This document shows positions 23,119 through 40,005 of a stretch of DNA of 64,000 bases, piece after piece. The notes under the pieces were generated by a model. The model was not told where the DNA came from, searched no databases, and saw only the letters and a list, made by a program, of their open reading frames with translations. Position 1 is the first letter of the stretch. Each line of letters starts with the position of its first letter. Source of the stretch: Rubripirellula sp. (GTDB lineage: Bacteria; Planctomycetota; Planctomycetia; Pirellulales; Pirellulaceae); NCBI GenBank assembly GCA_965216875.1, contig OZ244207.1, positions 4,704,001-4,768,000 of the forward strand, in the 5' to 3' direction. A program made the translations under genes and the position numbers.

Positions 23119-23577
23119 ATGCATCAGCGCCGAAATTCACATCGCTCCAACCTCAACACCTGTGCGGACCGTCCTTCGCACTGCCGTGCTCGGTCTGGTT
23201 TCACTCTGCTCGAACTCCTGCTCGTCTTGTCGATCCTTGTTGTGATTGGCGGAATCGCGATGGTGAACTTGGGCACCGCCTCTAACGATGCCAAGAATGA
23301 CGCGACTCGGGCTCAGATCAAGCAGATTGAGGACTCGATCAGCTACTACAAGATTCGCATGGGCTCACTTCCGGACAGCCTCGAAGCGCTTCGCGACGGA
23401 CCAAGCGATTCGGCCAAGAAAGCGAAATGGACGGGCCCCATCATGGACGACGTGCCAAAGGATGCTTGGGAACAAGACTTCCAGTACTCCCTCAACGGCA
23501 ACTCCTACGAGATTCGAAGTGGTGGTGTTGATGGCCAAATCAACACGGACGACGACATCACGGCCGAAGGATCCTGA
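23119..23577 (+). CDS. gspG: Type II secretion major pseudopilin
   Basis: Prepilin site G|FTLLE; C-terminal PKDAW..FQY and IRSGG.DG....DDDI. Confidence 0.88.
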   Translation: MHQRRNSHRSNLNTCADRPSHCRARSGFTLLELLLVLSILVVIGGIAMVNLGTASNDAKNDATRAQIKQIEDSISYYKIRMGSLPDSLEALRDGPSDSAKKAKWTGPIMDDVPKDAWEQDFQYSLNGNSYEIRSGGVDGQINTDDDITAEGS

Positions 23578-23664
23578 TTCCTTCTCGCAGCCTCGCCAAG
23601 CGGGGCGAATGCAGCAGAGATCGCTCCGCCTAAGTTAAGGGAAAGGAGCAAGGCGCGCGGGGAT

Positions 23665-24384
23665 TTGGCCGCCGGCTCGTTCGGCGAAGGACATGCCACT
23701 TTGCACAATCGACCAGCTTGCCAATGGCAAGCTGGTTCGTTTGATTCATCCACCCCAACCGAGACCCATCGCGTGCTCGCTTCTGGTCGCAACGGATTTA
23801 CGCTACTCGAATTGCTGCTGGTACTGGCCGTACTGGCTGCGGTTGCGTCAATCGTGCTGCCTCAGACAGGCATTTTGTTGGGCGACCGCCAGTTGGTCCG
23901 AAGTGGCGAAATCGTGCGTATCGAATTGACGCGGTTGCGCGTCGACGCGATGCGACAAGGTCGCGTGATGATCTTCCAAGGCGAACTCGAAGGCAACTCG
24001 TTCGAAATCAAACCGTTCCAGTCTTTTTCAGATGCGACGGAATCGATGGAACAGGTTGGTTCGCAATCGGCGTTGTTGACCGGCGCGTCTCAAGCACTCG
24101 CGGTCGCCCCGCAAGGTTCCAGCACCACTCGGAACGTCCCGCTTACCGAAGGCGTGACGATTGAATCGGTCGCTACCGTCTCGGCCGCCCGCGCCTTTGA
24201 GATTCAGCAGTCGACCGAGGCAGCGACCCAAACCGGCAACCTCAGTCAGCCGATTCTGTTCTACCCCGACGGTTCGACAAGCACAGCCGCGGTCACGCTC
24301 AAACATGAGACGATGGGACGCATCGTCGTCAAGCTACGCGGCATCACGGGCGACGCGACCGTAAGCGAGGTGCTGCCGCTATGA
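23665..24384 (+). CDS. gspH: Minor pseudopilin, GspH/FimT-like (true start probably downstream, e.g. 23701 or 23773)
   Basis: G|FTLLE; ILFYPDGSTS and RGITG motifs; position after gspG. Confidence 0.78.
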   Translation: MAAGSFGEGHATLHNRPACQWQAGSFDSSTPTETHRVLASGRNGFTLLELLLVLAVLAAVASIVLPQTGILLGDRQLVRSGEIVRIELTRLRVDAMRQGRVMIFQGELEGNSFEIKPFQSFSDATESMEQVGSQSALLTGASQALAVAPQGSSTTRNVPLTEGVTIESVATVSAARAFEIQQSTEAATQTGNLSQPILFYPDGSTSTAAVTLKHETMGRIVVKLRGITGDATVSEVLPL

Positions 24385-24878
24385 GGCTCTCGACAGATCA
24401 TCGAGTTCGCAGACAGCGGCGTGGTTTTTCGCTCTTGGAAATCCTGCTCGCCTTGGCGATTCTGGGCAGCTCCCTCGCGATCCTCAGCACGATCGTTTCG
24501 CGCGGCGCCAATGCGGGCTTGGTCGCGCGCGACTTGGCGATCGCAAGAATCCTCTGCCAAACAAAAATGGCCGAGGTGATGCTTGATGCAACCGGCGGCG
24601 TCTCACCCACCTCGTCACCTGCCGCTCCGATTCAATCGTTCGATTCCGATTCGTTCACAGCTTTCACGCAAACGGTTGAAGTGAGCCCAGCCCCCATGGA
24701 TGGCCTCTTGATGGTGAAGGTCACGATTGAAGGACTCGATTCGGAATCGGGTGCCGTTCGCGCACGACATGCACTGTCTCGCTGGATGATTGACCCGCTA
24801 CTCGGTTTGGAAGCGGCCGAGGTCGAGGAGCAGCTGGCACGGGAACAAGCATCCTCAGCGGCGGAGGGTGAAGGCTAA
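24381..24878 (+). CDS. gspI: Minor pseudopilin, GspI-like
   Basis: RRG|FSLLEILLALAI; ATGA overlap; operon position. Confidence 0.78.
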   Translation: MRLSTDHRVRRQRRGFSLLEILLALAILGSSLAILSTIVSRGANAGLVARDLAIARILCQTKMAEVMLDATGGVSPTSSPAAPIQSFDSDSFTAFTQTVEVSPAPMDGLLMVKVTIEGLDSESGAVRARHALSRWMIDPLLGLEAAEVEEQLAREQASSAAEGEG

Positions 24879-25864
24879 TGCAACGCCCCAATGCACATCA
24901 CCGCGGATTCACACTTCTGGAATTGCTTTTGACCCTTGCGCTTTCGGTGGTCTTGATCGGATTGGTCGGCGGAACACTTAAGTTCTACGCGGTCGACATG
25001 AACATTCGCGACCTCGAAGTCCGCCAAACCCATTTGGCAGCGGTCGTCATGCAAATGATCGAAGACGACCTTCGAGCAACGCTGCACAGCGAACCGGTCG
25101 ACACTGACGGGCTTGAAGCATTGTTCGCAGCAACCGCTGCCAATCTTGGAACTTCTCCAGCCGACGGAGCAGGTGCGACCGACCCGGACCAAGACCTTTC
25201 AGCGGCCGGGATCGATTCTGACATTGAAGACGAAACCCTTGCGGCCGATTCATCCGCCGACCTGCAGACCAGCGCTGCAATCTTGGAAACTCCCGGACTC
25301 ATCGGCAACCAATTCCAAATCCAAATCGATATCAGTCGATTGCCTCGCCTGGAAGAGTACCTCCCTGTCTTCGATACCAACACGGCCAATATCGACGACG
25401 TTCCCAGCGACATCAAAACGGTTTCTTACTTTGTTCAACCCGCCGGCGCTGTGACCGGAATCAACGATGCCTTGTTGGAAGTTGAGGATGCGTCTGGAAC
25501 GGAACCAACCGGCGGCCTGGTGCGACGTTCGCTCGACCGCGCGGCAACCATTTACGCCACCGAACAAAGTGGAGCTGCATTGCTCAATCAAACCGGCGAG
25601 CTGCTTGCCCCTGAGATCACGGGCATTGAGTTTGCCTACTGGGACGGGATGACGTGGCAGATGCAGTGGAGCAGCGATACTTATGGCGAGCTTCCGCTTG
25701 CCGTTCGCGTCCAACTTTACATGGCCGATCCGGCAGATGCCCTTTCCGGGAACGTCACGTCAACCGAGCAGCGAACATTCATGCACGTGATTCGCTTGCC
25801 GATGGCTCGCGTGCTTGAAGAAGAAGAGTCCGAAGAAGAAGAGTCGGAGGTCACAGGCATATGA
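24878..25864 (+). CDS. gspJ: Minor pseudopilin, GspJ-like
   Basis: RG|FTLLE; FAYWDG.TW...W....LPLAV motif; operon position. Confidence 0.8.
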   Translation: MQRPNAHHRGFTLLELLLTLALSVVLIGLVGGTLKFYAVDMNIRDLEVRQTHLAAVVMQMIEDDLRATLHSEPVDTDGLEALFAATAANLGTSPADGAGATDPDQDLSAAGIDSDIEDETLAADSSADLQTSAAILETPGLIGNQFQIQIDISRLPRLEEYLPVFDTNTANIDDVPSDIKTVSYFVQPAGAVTGINDALLEVEDASGTEPTGGLVRRSLDRAATIYATEQSGAALLNQTGELLAPEITGIEFAYWDGMTWQMQWSSDTYGELPLAVRVQLYMADPADALSGNVTSTEQRTFMHVIRLPMARVLEEEESEEEESEVTGI

Positions 25865-27540
25865 TCCCTCGTCTACGCCGCGGATTCTTTTTGATCATCG
25901 TGATGGTCGTCATTGCAGTGGCCACCTTCGCCGCCTACTCGTTCACCGAGTTGATGTTGGCTTACTACGATTCGTCCGACTTGTCGGCAGACATCGTGCA
26001 AGCGCGAATGAACGTCGAATCGGGATCCGAGATGTGCCGTCTGGTGCTCACCAATCCGCCCGAGTCTCGCGTCGACATGGGAGGTGTCTACAACAATCCA
26101 CAATTGTTCCAGGGCATTGTGGCTTCGATGGGAATCGATGGGGTCACGCCGTCGAACTTCACGGTCATTGCGCCTGGACTGGACGAACTTGGTCGCTACG
26201 GCGGAATCCGATTCGGCCTCCAGAACGAATCGGCTCGGTTGAACGTCAACGCCTTGCCGATCCTCGAAAAGTACTCCGATGCGTTGATGCCAATGGTCGC
26301 TTTGACCAGCGGCGAACTCGACGAAGACTCGGAACTCGACAGCGAGAACATTGCCGTCTCGTTGCTGATGTCTCTGCCGAACATGACCGAGGACATCGCC
26401 GAAGCGATCTTGGACTGGCTTGACGAAGATGAGATCGCGCGCGACTACGGCGCCGAGGTCGACTATTACGGCACGCTGCCAACGCCCTACGAACCGGCCA
26501 ACGGCCCACTAAAAAGTGTCGACGACTTGCTGCTGGTCAAAGGAGTGACGCCAACACTTCTGTTTGGGGCCGACGCGAATCGCAACGGTGTGATCGATGG
26601 TGACGAACAGCAACGGTTTGGCGTCAGCATCGATACGGCAGGGGCGCTCGGTTGGTCGGCTTACTTGACCGTCCATGGATCCGAAGCGAACAAGACGCGG
26701 GCGGGCGAATTCCGGGTCAATGTCAATCAAAGCGACATGGAATTGCTGTACGAGGAATTATCAACCGCCCTCGGCAATGACCTCTACGCCAGCTTCATCG
26801 TCGCCTATCGCATCGCAGGCCAATCCTCGTCGACCGCAGCGACGATCAACGTGGCGACCGGCAACAACCGCAACCCTCAGTCTCAAGCCGAGCCAGGCGG
26901 GCCCTGGACCACGGACTTGCTCGATGAAATGGATTTGACCGGCGGTGGGGGCACGTCGCTCAACCAAGTCTTGGACTTGATCGATTCGACCGTGACCATC
27001 GGATCGGGTGAAAACGCCAAGAGCTACACGTCGCCCTTCCCAGGTGATCCGATTTCGATGGCGATCTATTTGCCAATCATCATGGATCTCCTTTCGACAC
27101 AAGATGTCGACCAGATGCCGGGACGAATTAACATCAATGAATGCCCTGCCGAATTGCTGTATGGCATTCCGCTACTGAGCGAGGAATCGGTCGAAGCGAT
27201 CCTCGAGGCTCGAAGCACAGACTCGGACGACCCCAATCGAAGCTTTGAGACCTGGCCCATGGCGGAGGGCATTTTGACCGTTGACGAAATGCGTGCGTTG
27301 TTGCCGTTGGTCACCTGTGGTGGCGATGTCTATCGAGCGCAGATCGTTGGCTATTTCGAAACCGTTGCCGCCTCACATCGTGCGGAAGTGATCATTGATG
27401 CCACCACCGTGAATCCCAAAGTCGTGTCATGGCGCGACTTCAGTCACTTGGGTCGAGGATTCGACATTGCCGTGCTGGGTCTGCGAGGCGGGGTCGTTGC
27501 CACCGCGGGATCGGAAACGGACACCACCGCCAGCCAATAA
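25861..27540 (+). CDS. gspK: Minor pseudopilin GspK
   Basis: RRG|FFLIIV lacking E5; ESARLNVN, AILDWLDED, GAE..YY, DLLLVKGVT, GRININ. Confidence 0.88.
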   Translation: MIPRLRRGFFLIIVMVVIAVATFAAYSFTELMLAYYDSSDLSADIVQARMNVESGSEMCRLVLTNPPESRVDMGGVYNNPQLFQGIVASMGIDGVTPSNFTVIAPGLDELGRYGGIRFGLQNESARLNVNALPILEKYSDALMPMVALTSGELDEDSELDSENIAVSLLMSLPNMTEDIAEAILDWLDEDEIARDYGAEVDYYGTLPTPYEPANGPLKSVDDLLLVKGVTPTLLFGADANRNGVIDGDEQQRFGVSIDTAGALGWSAYLTVHGSEANKTRAGEFRVNVNQSDMELLYEELSTALGNDLYASFIVAYRIAGQSSSTAATINVATGNNRNPQSQAEPGGPWTTDLLDEMDLTGGGGTSLNQVLDLIDSTVTIGSGENAKSYTSPFPGDPISMAIYLPIIMDLLSTQDVDQMPGRININECPAELLYGIPLLSEESVEAILEARSTDSDDPNRSFETWPMAEGILTVDEMRALLPLVTCGGDVYRAQIVGYFETVAASHRAEVIIDATTVNPKVVSWRDFSHLGRGFDIAVLGLRGGVVATAGSETDTTASQ

Positions 27541-27602
27541 CAAAGATCTACCTGTACGTTTAAGTAAGGCAGTAGCGTCAAACGACGAAGCCGAGAATTG
27601 AT

Positions 27603-29399
27603 ATGCCAAAGAAACTAGCCATCGACTGGGATGACCAGGAACTGCGATTGGTTGCCGCTTCGTGCAGCGGTGCCAACGTCAAGGTTACCGATGCGGCGGT
27701 GATTCCGATCGAAAACTCAAGCGTGATTGAAACGCTTCGCGAAGCCATCTCGCGACGTGGCCTTGAGTCGACCGAAACACTTGTTGCCATCGGCCGCGGT
27801 CGAGCAGAACTGCGCGAACTGCAATTGCCCCCCGTTCCGGACGACGAGCTTCCGGACATGGTTCGCTTCCAGGCGATCCGCAGTTTTGCCTCCTCGGGCG
27901 ATCAATCAACCGTCGACTTCCTGGTGACTCGCCGCAAGGATGACGGCGTCGAAATGATTGCTGCCGCCGTCGGCCCCGACAGTCTTTCGGAAATCCAAAA
28001 GACATGCGAAGCGACCGACCTTTCGATCAAACGCATCGGACTTCGCCCGTTGGCCGCCGCCGCGTTGTACTTGACCAAGAACGCGTCTTCGGGCGACGGC
28101 GACGTGGTTCTGATTGACCTGCTTGCCGATGATGCCGAAATCGTTGTGGCTCGAGACGGCAAAGTGATCTTTGTCCGCACGGTGCGCATGCCTACCGCGG
28201 CCGCGGCCAGACCCAAGGCGCTCGCCGGCGAACTCAAACGAAGTTTGGTCGCATGTGGTTCAAGCGGATCACTTGGCCGTGTGGTCTTGTGGGGTCTCGA
28301 GTCGGTTCATCGTGACGATATCGAGATGCTCAGCGACGCTTCAGGCACATCGGTCGAAGTACTCGACCCGTTCCAGCTGGTCGATGTCGACCGCAAACTT
28401 CGCAGCGAGCTTCCAGAGCATGTCGGGCGACTCGCGCCGCTCGTTGGTTTGATCGCGAGCGACGAACAACACAGCGATCGGCTGATCGACTTCTTGAACC
28501 CGCGCGAGAAGGTCGAGGAAGTCCCCAATCCGATCAAGAAATACGCGATGATCGGCGTCCCGGTCGCAGCGGCGCTCGCTTTGGCGTTGATGACCTACCA
28601 ACAACTCAAGGGTATGGACGAGCGGATCACATCGATGCGCAATGAAAACGCCCAGATGAAGCCCAAGGTTGACGACGCGCTGAAAAAGATCGCCAAGACA
28701 GACAGTGTCGACGAGTTCCTTGACCTGAACGTCAACTGGCTCAACGAATTGCGTCGAGTCGCCGTGAACATGCCGCCCTCGGACAAAATGATTGTTCGTG
28801 GCATTAATGCCGGTGGCGATGTTCGCAACAGTGGCGGCAAACTGACGATCACCGGCGGTGTCACCGACCCAGACGTGTTGCACGTGCTCGAAAAGGCGCT
28901 GCTTGACGATGACCACAGCGTGCTCAGTGACGGTTCGTCGCTTCAAGAAAACGCCAAAGACGCGTACAAGTGGACCGCAAACGAAACGATCACCATTTCC
29001 GGCGCGGCTGTCCGCAATGCTCGATACGCTGCCTATGAAGCGATGCTTGTTGCCGAGATGGAATCCGATTCGGAAGCCGACATGGCAAGTGATTCCGAAA
29101 CGGCCAGCGACCCGCAAGACGATTCCGAAGCGACCGAACAACAAGACGTCGAGGAAGCCGAAACCAACGCGACTGCTGAGTCCGATGAAGCGGACGAAGC
29201 AGACGCCGCGACGAAACCGGACGTCGAACCAACAGCGGACGTCGAACCAACAGCGGACGTCGAACCAACGGCGGACGACAACAAGGATGGCGAAGGCGAT
29301 CCTGATCCGCCCGACACACCGTCGGATGGGCTCGACGTCAACAACACACCAATCACCGAAGAATTTGCCTCCGAAAGCGACCAGGAGGTGGCATCATGA
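27603..29399 (+). CDS. PilM-PilN (GspL-like) fusion with acidic C-terminal tail
   Basis: Actin-like N-terminus (LAIDWD, LPPVPDDELPDMVRFQA, VLIDL, FVRT), IDFLNPR, TM, coiled coil, PilN-like domain. Confidence 0.82.
   Translation: MPKKLAIDWDDQELRLVAASCSGANVKVTDAAVIPIENSSVIETLREAISRRGLESTETLVAIGRGRAELRELQLPPVPDDELPDMVRFQAIRSFASSGDQSTVDFLVTRRKDDGVEMIAAAVGPDSLSEIQKTCEATDLSIKRIGLRPLAAAALYLTKNASSGDGDVVLIDLLADDAEIVVARDGKVIFVRTVRMPTAAAARPKALAGELKRSLVACGSSGSLGRVVLWGLESVHRDDIEMLSDASGTSVEVLDPFQLVDVDRKLRSELPEHVGRLAPLVGLIASDEQHSDRLIDFLNPREKVEEVPNPIKKYAMIGVPVAAALALALMTYQQLKGMDERITSMRNENAQMKPKVDDALKKIAKTDSVDEFLDLNVNWLNELRRVAVNMPPSDKMIVRGINAGGDVRNSGGKLTITGGVTDPDVLHVLEKALLDDDHSVLSDGSSLQENAKDAYKWTANETITISGAAVRNARYAAYEAMLVAEMESDSEADMASDSETASDPQDDSEATEQQDVEEAETNATAESDEADEADAATKPDVEPTADVEPTADVEPTADDNKDGEGDPDPPDTPSDGLDVNNTPITEEFASESDQEVAS
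29219..29276 (+). repeat. 18-bp tandem repeat x3 (GGACGTCGAACCAACAGC; DVEPTA)
   Basis: Three consecutive units, one mismatch in the third. Confidence 0.92.
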
Positions 29400-30577
29400 C
29401 TCAACGAGAACGCTTACTCTCAATCCTTGTCGGTGGTTTGTTACTGGCAACCGTAGTTTGGTGGGGACTCAGCAAGTATCGCGGCGCGGTCAAAACGCGT
29501 CAGACCGCGATTACCAATCTCGAGTCGGATCGAGCCCGGATCGACGAACAAATCATGCAAGGCTTCCTTGCCGAGCGCACGATGGGCGAATACCTCGTTC
29601 GATCGCTACCGAGCGACACCAACCGTGCGCGAGGTGTCTACCAACAATGGCTCTTGGACATCGGCCAAAGCAATCAGTTTGATGATCTCGCCGTTGATCC
29701 CATCACGACCACACCCGTGGGCGACCTTTATCGGCGTCTCGGCTTTCGCATGTCGGGGAAAACAACCAAGCCTGACTTGGTTCGCATGCTGCACGCATTC
29801 TATGCAAAGGACTACTTGCACCGAATCCGTGAACTGTCCGTCCGCCCCAACAAGACCGACTCGTTCACCGTCGAAATGACCATTGACGTCGTCGCACTCA
29901 ACGCTGCTCCTGCGGACGCCCAGGCGCCAGCGGGTCGTTCTTGGCATGTTGATGGAGATGTTGCCAGCTATCTCGATCCGATCATGAATCGCAACTACTT
30001 CGAGCCGCCCAATGGGGCGCCTCGCTACAGCGGCAATGCGCGACAGGAAGCCTTTGTCGGTCGAAACACGCCGATCCCTCTAACCTTTAGTGACCCCGAA
30101 AAGGACCGCGTCAACGTCGAAGTCGTTGGTGAACTGCCTGAGTATGTCACGTTCGATCAAGGCAGCGGCACCCTTCGTGTCAATTCGGAAGAGAAACGTG
30201 AATTCACGGTTCTCGTTCGCGGAACCGACGAAGGCTACCCCAACCGATCGATCGAACAGGAAGTCAAGATCGCCGTCGTCGACCCACCCAAACCGCCACC
30301 ACCACCGGCGCCAAAACTCAAGTTTGATGATGCAACCCAGACCGTGCTAACCGGGCTGACGCACGGTCGCGACGACTGGACGGCATGGATGCACGTTCGC
30401 ACCCGCGGCAAGACCTTGAAATTGCGGGTTGGCGACCAGTTCGAAATCGGCAGTCTGAAAGGGGAAGTGATCGAGGTCACACCAAAGTTTGTCGAACTGG
30501 AAATCGCGGGCAAACGGTTCACTCTTAAGCCAAACGGCAATCTGAAAGAGGCCGCTGATAACTCGCAAGTCAACTAG
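29396..30577 (+). CDS. PilO/GspM-like protein fused to cadherin-like and PilP/GspC-like domains
   Basis: MTQRER plus TM plus coiled coil; NGAP...DPE.D...TD.GYP cadherin-type motifs; poly-Pro linker; beta-rich C-terminus. Confidence 0.72.
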   Translation: MTQRERLLSILVGGLLLATVVWWGLSKYRGAVKTRQTAITNLESDRARIDEQIMQGFLAERTMGEYLVRSLPSDTNRARGVYQQWLLDIGQSNQFDDLAVDPITTTPVGDLYRRLGFRMSGKTTKPDLVRMLHAFYAKDYLHRIRELSVRPNKTDSFTVEMTIDVVALNAAPADAQAPAGRSWHVDGDVASYLDPIMNRNYFEPPNGAPRYSGNARQEAFVGRNTPIPLTFSDPEKDRVNVEVVGELPEYVTFDQGSGTLRVNSEEKREFTVLVRGTDEGYPNRSIEQEVKIAVVDPPKPPPPPAPKLKFDDATQTVLTGLTHGRDDWTAWMHVRTRGKTLKLRVGDQFEIGSLKGEVIEVTPKFVELEIAGKRFTLKPNGNLKEAADNSQVN

Positions 30578-36578: not shown

Positions 36579-36776
36579 ATGTCAAGCATTTCACCCGCCG
36601 TCGGGCAGCTGCTACGAGCACAGAACGACGCGGTGCGCCAGCAGATCGATACGACGCTGTTGAAAAAGAACCTTGACGCTCAAAAACAGGCCGGCGACGC
36701 CGCCAACGCTTTGCTCGAACAAGCCGTCAAAGTCCAAGAGCAAATCTCAGCCGGTTACCTCGACGTCCGCGTCTAG
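36579..36776 (+). CDS. Small protein, YjfB (putative motility protein)-like
   Basis: LLKKNLDAQKQAGDAANALLE...GYLDVRV pattern. Confidence 0.7.
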   Translation: MSSISPAVGQLLRAQNDAVRQQIDTTLLKKNLDAQKQAGDAANALLEQAVKVQEQISAGYLDVRV

Positions 36777-36779
36777 CGT

Positions 36780-36905
36780 GTAGGCCGGATCAAGGAGCGA
36801 CAGCGACGCAGATCCGGCACTCCTGTGAGCCGAACGCGCTAGCGTCGGGCACTCCTGAGCCGAACGCGCTAGCGTCGGGCCTTCCTAAGCCGAACGCGCC
36901 AGCGT
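36780..36905. repeat. REP cluster: GTAGGCCGGATC...GATCCGGC hairpin, then three tandem family A copies (36825, 36856, 36886)
   Basis: 30-bp periodicity; third copy degenerate. Confidence 0.88.
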
Positions 36906-36933
36906 TTCAGATTGCTAGACTGCGCGCTCGAAA

Positions 36934-37042
36934 ACTCTCCCTTGGGAGAGTCGGGCTCCAAGGCCCGGAGAGGGTCTGCTTTTACAAAAATCATTCCCTC
37001 CCCGGACTTTGCGTTCGACCCTCCCGCAAGCGGGAGGGTGAT
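36934..37042. repeat. Family E composite palindromic repeat (CTCTCCCTTGGGAGAG...CCCTCCCGCAAGCGGGAGGG), copy 1
   Basis: Arms near-identical to 46952-47055; spacer differs. Confidence 0.88.
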
Positions 37043-37060
37043 TGCTGTCGCGCCCCCCCG

Positions 37061-38032: not shown

Positions 38033-38220
38033 AACAAGATCCCAATACCCGAAGCGAATCACATAGAAGTCAAGGAGCAACATCTTATCCCAAAACGGAC
38101 AGCCATTCGGTGGTTCCCTGTGCGTGAACCGCCGAAAGATGCCATCCTGAATACCAGCGGTTTCTTATCTCCGTTCAGCGACACAAAAGCTGAATCACCT
38201 TCACCCCGCGGGAGGGCAAA

Positions 38221-40005
38221 ATGCGTGCACTCACACGCCACCTTTCAACTGGCCACCTTTCAACGGGCCTGTCGGTCAGTGACCGAATCCCGGGCCAACA
38301 CTACGAGCTACCCGACCATGTTCGGCTGCTCGACGTGGACGTGCCCGATTCCGTCCTTGATCTCGTCCCCGAGACACTTGCACGGGAAAACGCCGTTGCG
38401 CCTTTAGCTGTCGAAGACGACACGATCATCTGCGCGACGCCGCACGACACGGACGTCATGATCCAAGACAAGCTGCGATTCATTCTGAATTGCAATGTCC
38501 GTTTCATTTATCGCAGCAACGAAGAAGTACACAACTTCATCAACTTCCACTATGGCCAAGTCGAGGGTGAGTCGGCCGATTCGATGTTGCAAGAATTCAC
38601 CGACACCGCGATCGACTTTGACGACCGCGACAACAGCGGCGTCTGCTTGTCGATGGCAGGAATACCAAGCCGATCTCGCAATGTCGCTGCACGACGCGCA
38701 TCGCCAGCACCAACCGCTTCGATCAGTTCACGCCGAAACCAAAAAGCCTACGCATCACCCGAGCCAGGAGACGGATTCATGTTCTACACCATCGACGAAG
38801 GCCAACAGGTGTTGGCCTATCGCCCCAACGGGACCATTGATCTGATCGAGGGTCCCAAGCGCGTTTGGAAAGGCCGTTCGCGATTTGAACGCATGCCCCA
38901 TTTCATCGCACACCCGTCACAGTACTTGACGATCCGTTTTCGTGACGGCCGCGAGGAGACTCGCCTTGGCCCCGTCCAAGCATGGCTCGATCGCCGCGTG
39001 CATGATGACATCCAAGTTCATGATTGCCTCGACCTGGCAGCCAAAGAAGCGGTCGTCGTCTATTCGACCAATTCGCCGGATGACGAATCGGGCGCATCTC
39101 GTCGGATCGTTTATGGTCCTGGCTTGTTTGCACCGCGCCCCGGCGAATGGCTGCATAAGTTTTCGTGGCATGCATCGCACGGTGGTTCACGCGGCGTCGA
39201 AAAACGCCCCAACGCACTCAAGTTCCAACAACTTTGCTTGATGCCTGACCAGATGTATCACGACGTTCGCGATGTACGCACCGCCGACGACGCCGTGTTG
39301 ACCATCCGATTGATGATTTTCTTTGAATTGGTCGACATTGAAAGAATGCTCGACACGACTCATGACCCAATCGGCGACTTCATCAACGCGGCCACAAGTG
39401 ACGTGGTCGAGTTCACCGGAAAACGTTCGTTTGAACAATTCAAACAACAAACCGAACAGCTGAATGAATTGTCGACCTACAACCAATTGCTTCACCGCGC
39501 TAGCCAGTGCGGCTACAAGATCAACAACGTCGTCTACCGTGGCTACGGCGCGCCCGATTCACTGCAAGCGATGCATGATGAAGCAATTCAAACACGAACT
39601 CGGTTGCAACTTGAAAAGGCGACCGAAAAACAGGCACAAGAAGTCGAAGACTACAAGCTCAGTTGCCAGATGGAACGCTCTGCGCGGCGCCGCCAGGAGC
39701 AAATGACCGAAGTGCAACACGACCTCGAGACCAAACGTCAACAATCGGACGCTGAACTTGCCCGCAAGGAACGTGTCGCCGAGTTCTCACGCAACGAGCG
39801 CCGTGCTCAAGCGGAACTCGAATTGGAACTGAAACAGCGCGGCGACGAACAAAAACAGGCTCATCTGGAAGCCTTGCGGGGCATGCAGGTCAATCTGACC
39901 GAGTACCTGACCCAGTCTCGCGCCGACCAAGTGATCGAGGTCCGAGGCGACGCGAAGATGCAACCGGAACTGCATTTGGCCAACGGCAAGAGTCGGCCAA
40001 AGTAA
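38221..40005 (+). CDS. GspE/PilB N-terminal domain fused to major-vault-protein-like repeats, SPFH shoulder domain and coiled coil
   Basis: Residues 31-133 are T2SSE_N-like (VPETLARENAVAPL...KLRFILN...YGQVEGESADSMLQEFTDTAIDF). From residue 187: GP-containing repeats, VRTADDA.LTI, DPIGDF, SFEQF, GY.I..V..., long helix. Confidence 0.75.
   Translation: MRALTRHLSTGHLSTGLSVSDRIPGQHYELPDHVRLLDVDVPDSVLDLVPETLARENAVAPLAVEDDTIICATPHDTDVMIQDKLRFILNCNVRFIYRSNEEVHNFINFHYGQVEGESADSMLQEFTDTAIDFDDRDNSGVCLSMAGIPSRSRNVAARRASPAPTASISSRRNQKAYASPEPGDGFMFYTIDEGQQVLAYRPNGTIDLIEGPKRVWKGRSRFERMPHFIAHPSQYLTIRFRDGREETRLGPVQAWLDRRVHDDIQVHDCLDLAAKEAVVVYSTNSPDDESGASRRIVYGPGLFAPRPGEWLHKFSWHASHGGSRGVEKRPNALKFQQLCLMPDQMYHDVRDVRTADDAVLTIRLMIFFELVDIERMLDTTHDPIGDFINAATSDVVEFTGKRSFEQFKQQTEQLNELSTYNQLLHRASQCGYKINNVVYRGYGAPDSLQAMHDEAIQTRTRLQLEKATEKQAQEVEDYKLSCQMERSARRRQEQMTEVQHDLETKRQQSDAELARKERVAEFSRNERRAQAELELELKQRGDEQKQAHLEALRGMQVNLTEYLTQSRADQVIEVRGDAKMQPELHLANGKSRPK

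Follow-up and report, generated by a model that had tools for sequence, protein, structure and literature searches.

The window, that is, the whole 64,000-nucleotide stretch of Rubripirellula sp. DNA analysed, carries on its forward strand a gene for a 594-residue protein in which an N-terminal arm of PilB type is joined to a short core resembling major vault protein (MVP). This gene stands alone, with a divergent sugar-isomerase-like gene (xylose-isomerase-like TIM barrel) on one side and a convergent sulfite reductase gene on the other. The relevant features, each with the evidence used to assign it, are as follows.

38210..38215, forward strand: Shine-Dalgarno-like GGGAGG, 5 bases ahead of the ATG (direct reading)
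38221..40005, forward strand: fusion gene, PilB-type arm plus short MVP-like core, 594 aa, ATG start (open reading frame read from the sequence)
38305..38553, forward strand: ND1 / MshEN_C alpha/beta domain, residues 29-111, pLDDT 95-97 (Pfam, AlphaFold2, VIA-align, comparison with PilB1)
38551..38619, forward strand: PilB1 linker mimic, residues 111-133 (comparison with the host PilB1, cross-genome tracking)
38620..38775, forward strand: spacer, disordered and poorly conserved, residues 134-185 (pLDDT <50 at 131-178; column conservation 0.24)
38776..39234, forward strand: three vault-type beta repeats, residues 186-338 (AlphaFold2; VIA-align to MVP from its residue 323)
39235..39555, forward strand: SPFH / MVP shoulder domain, residues 339-445 (VIA-align; the top column conservation, 0.86)
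39556..39882, forward strand: cap helix, residues 446-554, 109 aa (AlphaFold2)
39883..40002, forward strand: C-terminal segment, conserved (column value 0.70) but modelled with low confidence in the monomer (alignment, AlphaFold2); likely the closure of the cap

No sigma-70-like promoter of the fusion gene was found when one was sought, and the number of terminator-like sites (5 against 3.5 ± 2.1 expected) was at chance level. Four sequencing runs compared with the locus gave only DNA-like cover, plus a few short pieces in one run that was itself guessed to be RNA. Nearby, at 36776-37050 of the window, lies an intergenic repeat of 30-nt direct units, REP- or MITE-like in character; sequence resembling it recurs at 478 genomic sites.

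Domain layout and genomic setting

The sole Pfam match of the 594-residue protein was to PF05157 (MshEN), which covers residues 33-115 with E 2.9e-10 and clears the curated cut-off, and profile searches detected neither an N2 domain nor an ATPase domain after it. An earlier note, which had likened residues 31-133 to the N-terminal domain of GspE/PilB without the ATPase, was therefore correct on this point, and every motif quoted in it was found in the translation. The AlphaFold2 model (116-sequence alignment, mean pLDDT 80.6, pTM 0.52) reproduced the order of repeats, SPFH domain and helix proposed there, but with a helix of 109 residues rather than about 130. The region of the three repeats ends in a loop which the alignment to MVP equates with the NAD-binding keyhole loop of the latter. 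Column conservation fell from 0.79 in the linker motif to 0.56 in the ND1 fold and 0.24 in the spacer, the value for the motif being inflated by an alignment of 116 rows picked for similarity to the fusion itself. Since the maximum hydropathy over a 19-residue window was only 1.38, and was located inside a beta strand, there is no transmembrane anchor.

Docking onto a type II secretion or type IV pilus platform had also been envisaged in the earlier note, with a PilM-like protein encoded about 10 kb away (27603-29399) as the partner. The link to the type IV pilus is strengthened by linker tracking and by codon usage (vide infra), but the nominated partner finds no support: its match to PilM was weak (Pfam E 1e-4, below cut-off), and neither it nor its operon neighbours had a homologue at any of 80 related loci, 42 of which were at least 15 kb long. 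Equivalent searches for PilB, PilT, PilC, PilM or the GspJ/K/PilM-like proteins of the window found none near these loci save partial ATPase matches (two Myxococcota locus edges), and with no pilus-gene linkage the closeness of 27603-29399 looks coincidental. The best PilM match of the source genome, above cut-off, lies elsewhere, at G000:C1:3478510-3480762. No neighbours were conserved beyond family-level synteny across the 80 loci and the window; one example of such synteny is a tryptophan-synthase-like gene at 11 loci. As a separate observation, positions 23119-30577 hold a run of pseudopilin-like and GspJ/GspK-like genes together with the weak PilM/GspL-like gene, and no assembly ATPase was found in the window.

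Fold, relatives and distribution of the core

When the model was submitted to Foldseek, ranks 1-12 were all occupied by MVP (best E 2.6e-15), followed by flotillin, stomatin and HflK/C. VIA-align placed residues 188-561 onto residues 323-763 of human MVP (Z 13.8, 356 aligned residues, 17% identity) with an rmsd of 14.3 Å, a deviation that probably comes from a hinge of the helix; we take the segment of MVP from residue 323 onward to begin with repeats R7-R9 in its own numbering. The SPFH domains of prohibitin and stomatin tied with MVP (Z 13.7), that of stomatin with an rmsd of 2.1 Å, and residues 29-111 were superimposed on residues 65-145 of MshE (Z 12.1, rmsd 1.9 Å). AlphaFold2, Foldseek and VIA-align thereby back the vault anatomy proposed in the earlier note, that is, repeats, SPFH shoulder and cap helix combined with a GspE/PilB N-domain.

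By way of contrast, the link to the vault is barely visible in sequence alone, because the Pfam models Vault, MVP_shoulder and Band_7 had no match in the 594-residue protein, and a family profile built from 96 sequences and run against the PDB returned MVP, as its sole match, only at E 0.79. Among the 96 members (E ≤ 0.01), Vault_3 was recognised in 2, MVP_shoulder in 1 and Band_7 in 35. Searches of PDB sequences by phmmer with the fusion and with a longer relative did not reach MVP. As regards the minor components of the vault (TEP1, PARP4, vault RNA), the search covered the TROVE domain, for which the source genome had no match. In the Atlas, the core sits beside Band_7 and MVP_shoulder clusters at 0.94-0.98, its nearest clusters being mostly eukaryotic or from Myxococcota. 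The earlier expectation of a relationship to MVP is thus borne out by the fold and not by the Vault, MVP_shoulder or Band_7 profiles. As modelled, the fusion is a short relative of the MVP/SPFH subunits, distinct from MVP proper in repeat number and in having no Pfam match to it, and it is neither a PilB nor an MshEN receptor.

A published regression for SPFH complexes (subunits = 0.1782 × helix length + 10.22; PMC12624060, as available in part) gives 29.6, or about 30 subunits per ring, for the 109-residue helix, on the assumption that the whole helix counts.

The core (residues 186-594) matched 999 representatives at E ≤ 0.001 in a 50%-identity library; many are stand-alone proteins some 400 residues long, and a number have more repeats. 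PF05157 was present in 118 of the 120 best full-length homologues listed, and the fusion is therefore not an artefact of assembly. Among species-representative genomes, 154 loci could be confirmed, records of Gemmata, Limnoglobus, Zavarzinella and Singulisphaera being among the sources of related loci, and the 80 kept for comparison came mainly from Pirellulaceae, Gemmataceae, Isosphaeraceae, Planctomycetaceae and their relatives, together with unfused forms from Myxococcota whose long, low-complexity N-termini contain, by inspection, neither ND1 nor the linker motif. Matches occurred in 2 of 40 relatives, in 9 of 401 genomes of a phylum sample and in 44 of 401 of a class sample (Planctomycetia); the long form (E < 1e-140) was present in 33 of the latter, and none of 47 other genomes of the same family matched. 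The fusion consequently recurs, patchily, across Planctomycetia and is not unique to this assembly, a possibility which the earlier note had wished to see surveyed. In a quick tree of the core the branching mostly mirrored the families of the hosts, the N-domain having been lost in places and the deep forks being poorly separated, and the distribution suggests vertical descent with frequent loss. Neither viral contigs, searched with the fused alignment, nor PHROGs yielded a relative.

Several further features of the family were recorded. A short N-terminal motif ending in GAL is common to fused planctomycete and unfused Myxococcota members (P0125, P0127, P0141, L077, L084, L093 and most fused members), a loose pattern for it being present in 63 of 116 rows. 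Two members, P0248 and P0270, carry a biotin/lipoyl-attachment domain N-terminal to the short core, from which it follows that the N-terminus of the family accepts different arms. Two Gemmataceae genomes (L235, L236) contain broken duplicates of the fusion gene and remnants of its C-terminal part, these pieces lying within a few kb of one another or of an intact copy.

Stand-alone short-MVP genes were also located inside clusters for NAD salvage and ADP-ribose metabolism (L148:298-14561, L149:6567-15999, L003, L108), whose content includes NAPRTase, NAD synthase, NrtR, an isochorismatase-family protein, Tpt1/KptA, Nudix, DUF4291 and ADP-ribosylglycohydrolase. Genes of this kind are neighbours of 4 of the 7 stand-alone loci from planctomycetes and of 0 of the 80 loci of the long clade, comprising fused and Myxococcota members. 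The shoulder of MVP has an NAD-binding pocket (PMC12280208, in the text available), of which K506, R507, P508 and D521 have equivalents in the fusion while R504 and R511 have none, as judged by a weak alignment (E 0.79); among 116 rows, the equivalent of K506 is retained in 116, that of P508 in 101 and that of D521 in 115.

Origin of the arm and its match to the host PilB1

The arm is 50% identical over 115 residues to PilB1 of the same genome, as against 31% or less to four other paralogous ATPases. Residues 111-133, which form an acidic motif, are identical to the host PilB1 at 23 of 23 positions, with the same codon at only 9 of 22 comparable codons, and the pattern of this linker motif is carried by only two open reading frames in the source genome. 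PilB1 (G000:C1:4330865-4332625) is encoded 410 kb from the fusion gene, by the gene that opens a pilB-pilT-pilB-pilC-pilin cluster. In terms of the subdomains defined for the PilB/MshEN N-region (PMC5013675, PMC8389850, both in part), the arm comprises ND1/MshEN_C and the linker, the four-helix c-di-GMP-binding subdomain being missing. When a tree was built from the folded core with the motif left out, on 73 columns only, one branch (92/98) set all 33 PilB1 rows apart from the 30 fusions. Taken at the level of sequence comparison, the arm derives from one old capture of the PilB1 domain.

Alignment by HMMER matched the motif of the fusion with the start of the linker in Myxococcus and Geobacter PilB. 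The AlphaFold2 model of full-length PilB1 (42 sequences) had pLDDT values below 50 across the linker (140-175), and is therefore silent on linker docking. Mutual information over 69 PilB1 sequences, a measure confounded by phylogeny and given no weight as evidence here, ranked N2 positions 240, 248 and 206 among the strongest partners of the two linker columns that vary most.

Two side observations concern PilB1 elsewhere. Of two adjacent PilB paralogues at L183, only PilB1 (L183:181-1923) is mimicked; it falls just under the cut-off for the c-di-GMP motif (37.6 against 38), which the adjacent paralogue (L183:3804-5513) passes at 47.3. A second PilB1-derived protein, consisting of TIGR02996, ND1 and a partial linker, aligning into N2 and with no ATPase, occurs in Gemmataceae (L140:2112-3119, L141, L142:2086-3090); the genes downstream of it are, we presume from their appearance, archease and RtcB.

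Comparison of each fusion with PilB1 of its own and of other hosts was undertaken on a main set of 38 planctomycete genomes, from which 8 were removed for a missing or fragmentary pair member and G068 for a broken fusion frame, leaving 29 plus the source genome (G000). Across the resultant 30 genome pairs, motif identity was 0.726 to the own PilB1, 0.649 to other PilB1 proteins and 0.547 between fusions. After collapsing to 10 clades, a step which still leaves kin genomes not fully independent, the motif gave 0.727 for own against 0.642 for other (p 5e-6, 10 of 10 positive), and the folded core 0.399 against 0.391 (p 0.14). Within nine Gemmataceae the excess had p 0.01 for the motif and p 0.79 for the folded core. 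Minority, lineage-specific host states were matched in 25 of 49 cases in the motif (5.8 expected), and in 68 of 329 in the folded core (68.9 expected). One duplication followed by independent descent should leave no excess of identity to the own PilB1, and the motif excess therefore points to host tracking.

Out-of-sample data from 17 new pairs, obtained after G586 was dropped for want of an N-domain (1 of 18), again indicated tracking by the motif (0.474 against 0.435, p 2e-4), although here the folded core tracked the host too (0.375 against 0.355, p 9e-4) and within-family tests of the motif gave p 0.14 and 0.03. The linker motif was lost in 7 of these 17 pairs, representing two lineages, and shortened in several more; ND1 persisted where the motif was lost.

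Codon usage bears on whether the match arose by copying of DNA. The share of identical codons between fusion and own PilB1 was 0.46, 0.61, 0.60 and 0.43 in four families, with 0.50, 0.59, 0.52 and 0.44 against other genomes of the same family, so that own pairs resembled non-own pairs and mostly fell below the values between PilB1 genes. In G062 one residue of the fusion has changed to the host state while synonymous codons on both flanks remain of fusion type. Both results argue against gene conversion. Old, short conversions between PilB1 and the fusion may nevertheless have occurred, given identical runs of up to 29 nt and the one family with 0.60 against 0.52.

On these comparisons the strongest host-matched selection is on the PilB linker, not on the folded ND1 that binds PilM/GspL in solved structures. 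The simplest reading of the tracking would be mimicry at the level of the protein, in which whatever accommodates the PilB1 linker has to accommodate the copy as well. The fusion is thus a real, conserved, accessory gene of the vault/SPFH kind, with a measurable sign of mimicry of the host pilus ATPase.

Possible roles and comparison with known systems

From the observed fold, origin of the arm, tracking and patchy distribution, we infer a vault-like cage that would bind PilB1 by means of decoy arms and so restrain or store it, a reading to which we give a little short of an even chance, its inferred components being the cage, the binding, the partner and the inhibitory sign. The short MVP-like subunit would, on the basis of its fold and helix length, assemble into a dome of about 30 copies, each presenting at the open N-terminal rim an ND1 domain and a copy of the PilB1 N1-N2 linker on a tether of about 50 residues. 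The copy would bind the site used by the linker of PilB1 itself, most likely a hydrophobic patch on PilB1 N2, and would be kept matched to the host for that reason. Many arms per cage would confer high avidity for the PilB1 hexamer and displace the linker of the latter, so that PilB1 might be held off the pilus base or inactive: in effect, type IV pilus assembly would have a brake or store that the host itself encodes and can do without.

The accessible portion of PMC13436744 (2026) describes the hydrophobic-acidic PilB linker as making a functional contact with the N2 patch, promoting contact between subunits and varying by species, and reports that the phage protein Aqs1, by binding at this patch, breaks the PilB hexamer. 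That published contact, together with the alignment of the motif with the linker start in Myxococcus and Geobacter PilB, makes PilB1 the most economical shared partner. The linker-N2 contact in question is based on Pseudomonas genetics and a low-confidence model (PMC13436744), and the planctomycete linker, being far more conserved than those described in the available text, could have a different partner. With PilB1 as the likely partner, some 30 avid arms, and a precedent in HflK/C-FtsH, where an SPFH cage engages a hexameric ATPase (PMC12624060, in part), a cage that restrains or stores PilB1 is proposed. The fuller version, a multivalent decoy in the form of a mini-vault of about 30 subunits that uses its host-matched linker to capture or cage PilB1, possibly under control by NAD/ADP-ribose, is advanced more tentatively, as a reasonable possibility that we would not favour over its negation; binding of NAD/ADP-ribose in the shoulder pocket as the control of the cage would be a further and weaker step.

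Alternatively, the arm may mimic PilB1 towards a platform partner (the true PilM of the genome, PilC or an adaptor yet to be named), so that the cage would dock on the cytoplasmic side of the pilus base and act there as a cap, as a competitor or as a means of localisation. Such a reading, which retains the idea of the earlier note but changes the partner, is the main rival; we consider it unlikely but serious, and it accords with much of the evidence: solved complexes show ND1 bound to GspL/EpsL, and binding of ND1 to PilM has been proposed (PMC8389850, in part), the fusions retain the ND1 fold with its PESVAREN-like and KLxFIL-like surfaces, ND1 outlasts the linker motif in some lineages, the source genome encodes an above-cut-off PilM, and a shared partner would suffice for host tracking with no requirement for N2. 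Set against this, tracking in the main set was in excess for the linker and not for the folded ND1, and such functional data as were found for the linker, in the available text of PMC13436744, point to the N2 domain of PilB itself. Both contacts could be made on one assembled motor.

Considerably less probable is a cage that serves as an NAD/ADP-ribose compartment, as in the unfused relatives, with the arm as a passenger that decays except when, occasionally, gene conversion from PilB1 refreshes it. The NAD-salvage setting of stand-alone loci, the retention of the K506, P508 and D521 equivalents, and motif decay and N-domain loss in some lineages are in its favour; the absence of such genes from the long clade, codons without a conversion signal, the point change in G062 and the missing R504 and R511 equivalents weigh against it. 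We rate as improbable, too, and slightly more so, an SPFH-type oligomer other than a dome (a small ring, filament or membrane-bound half cage) on which the arm would act as in the decoy proposal. Six of the nine MVP repeats are absent, and with them the N-terminal region through which half vaults are joined (PMC12280208, in part), and the stomatin and prohibitin domains score as high as MVP, but a domed architecture is common to the SPFH complexes compared in the available text of PMC12624060, and the fusion has no transmembrane anchor. That the arm is a c-di-GMP sensor, as the Pfam name MshEN and the structural match to MshE would literally imply, is scarcely credible, since that match is limited to MshEN_C whereas the ligand binds the four-helix MshEN_N (PMC5013675, in part), and both the NCBIfam c-di-GMP motif model and the four-helix subdomain with its two 24-residue motifs are without counterpart in the fusion.

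A literature search found nothing on a PilB-arm/MVP fusion or a three-repeat MVP family, within a scope where supplementary lists could include members and subscription papers fell mostly outside. The function of the vault is still described as open in recent papers (PMC13100048, PMC12280208, both in part). The present protein is a small bacterial vault-like subunit whose fused tag names a likely client, and the question of whether vault-type cages capture a specific protein consequently becomes testable with one gene. The tracking, for its part, provides independent evolutionary evidence that the PilB N1-N2 linker serves as an element for specific binding, and suggests that planctomycetes have a layer of pilus control not yet described. 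If the decoy cage is real, it would be a vault-family protein with its client written into its own sequence, and a self-assembling cage of three-repeat subunits would be a simple nanocompartment scaffold.

The fusion resembles MVP (PDB 9R86, 9BW5, 4V60, 9Z4W) across some 360 aligned residues, in which repeats, shoulder and cap helix have the same order and predicted fold, and likewise has no membrane anchor. Unlike MVP, for which nine N-terminal repeats are described (PMC13100048, in part), it has three repeats, a 109-residue helix, 17-20% identity, a PilB-derived N-terminal arm and no Pfam Vault or MVP_shoulder match. With the SPFH cages (HflK/C-FtsH, prohibitin, erlin, stomatin, flotillin, QmcA) it shares the SPFH core and long helix (Z 11-13.7), whereas canonical members are anchored in the membrane upstream of the SPFH domain and the fusion, without such an anchor, has vault repeats and a soluble mimic arm in that position. 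The bacterial and phage MVP homologues described in the available parts of 10.1101/872010, PMC3762200 and 10.1101/2023.11.10.566534 are likewise prokaryotic MVP-like proteins of unknown function, but they were picked up when eukaryotic MVP itself was used as a BLAST query, and come from Cyanobacteria, Myxococcales, Cytophagales, Chloroflexi or phages, none of those given there being from Planctomycetota or having a PilB domain; the Atlas clusters with MVP_shoulder are also separate from that of the fusion. With the N-domains of PilB, GspE and MshE (PF05157; PDB 5HTL, 7LKM, 2D28) the arm has the ND1 fold in common (rmsd 1.9-3.0 Å), but the fusion has no four-helix ND0 subdomain, N2 domain or ATPase domain. 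Finally, the PilB inhibitors Aqs1 and Tip from phages and CpiA from the host (PMC13436744, PMC11656802, in part) disable pilus extension by competition at PilB, as is proposed here for the fusion. Those inhibitors are small unrelated proteins, whereas the fusion carries the linker of PilB itself, copied and displayed many times on the proposed cage, and would, if the decoy cage is real, constitute a host-encoded counterpart of the phage inhibitors built by self-mimicry.
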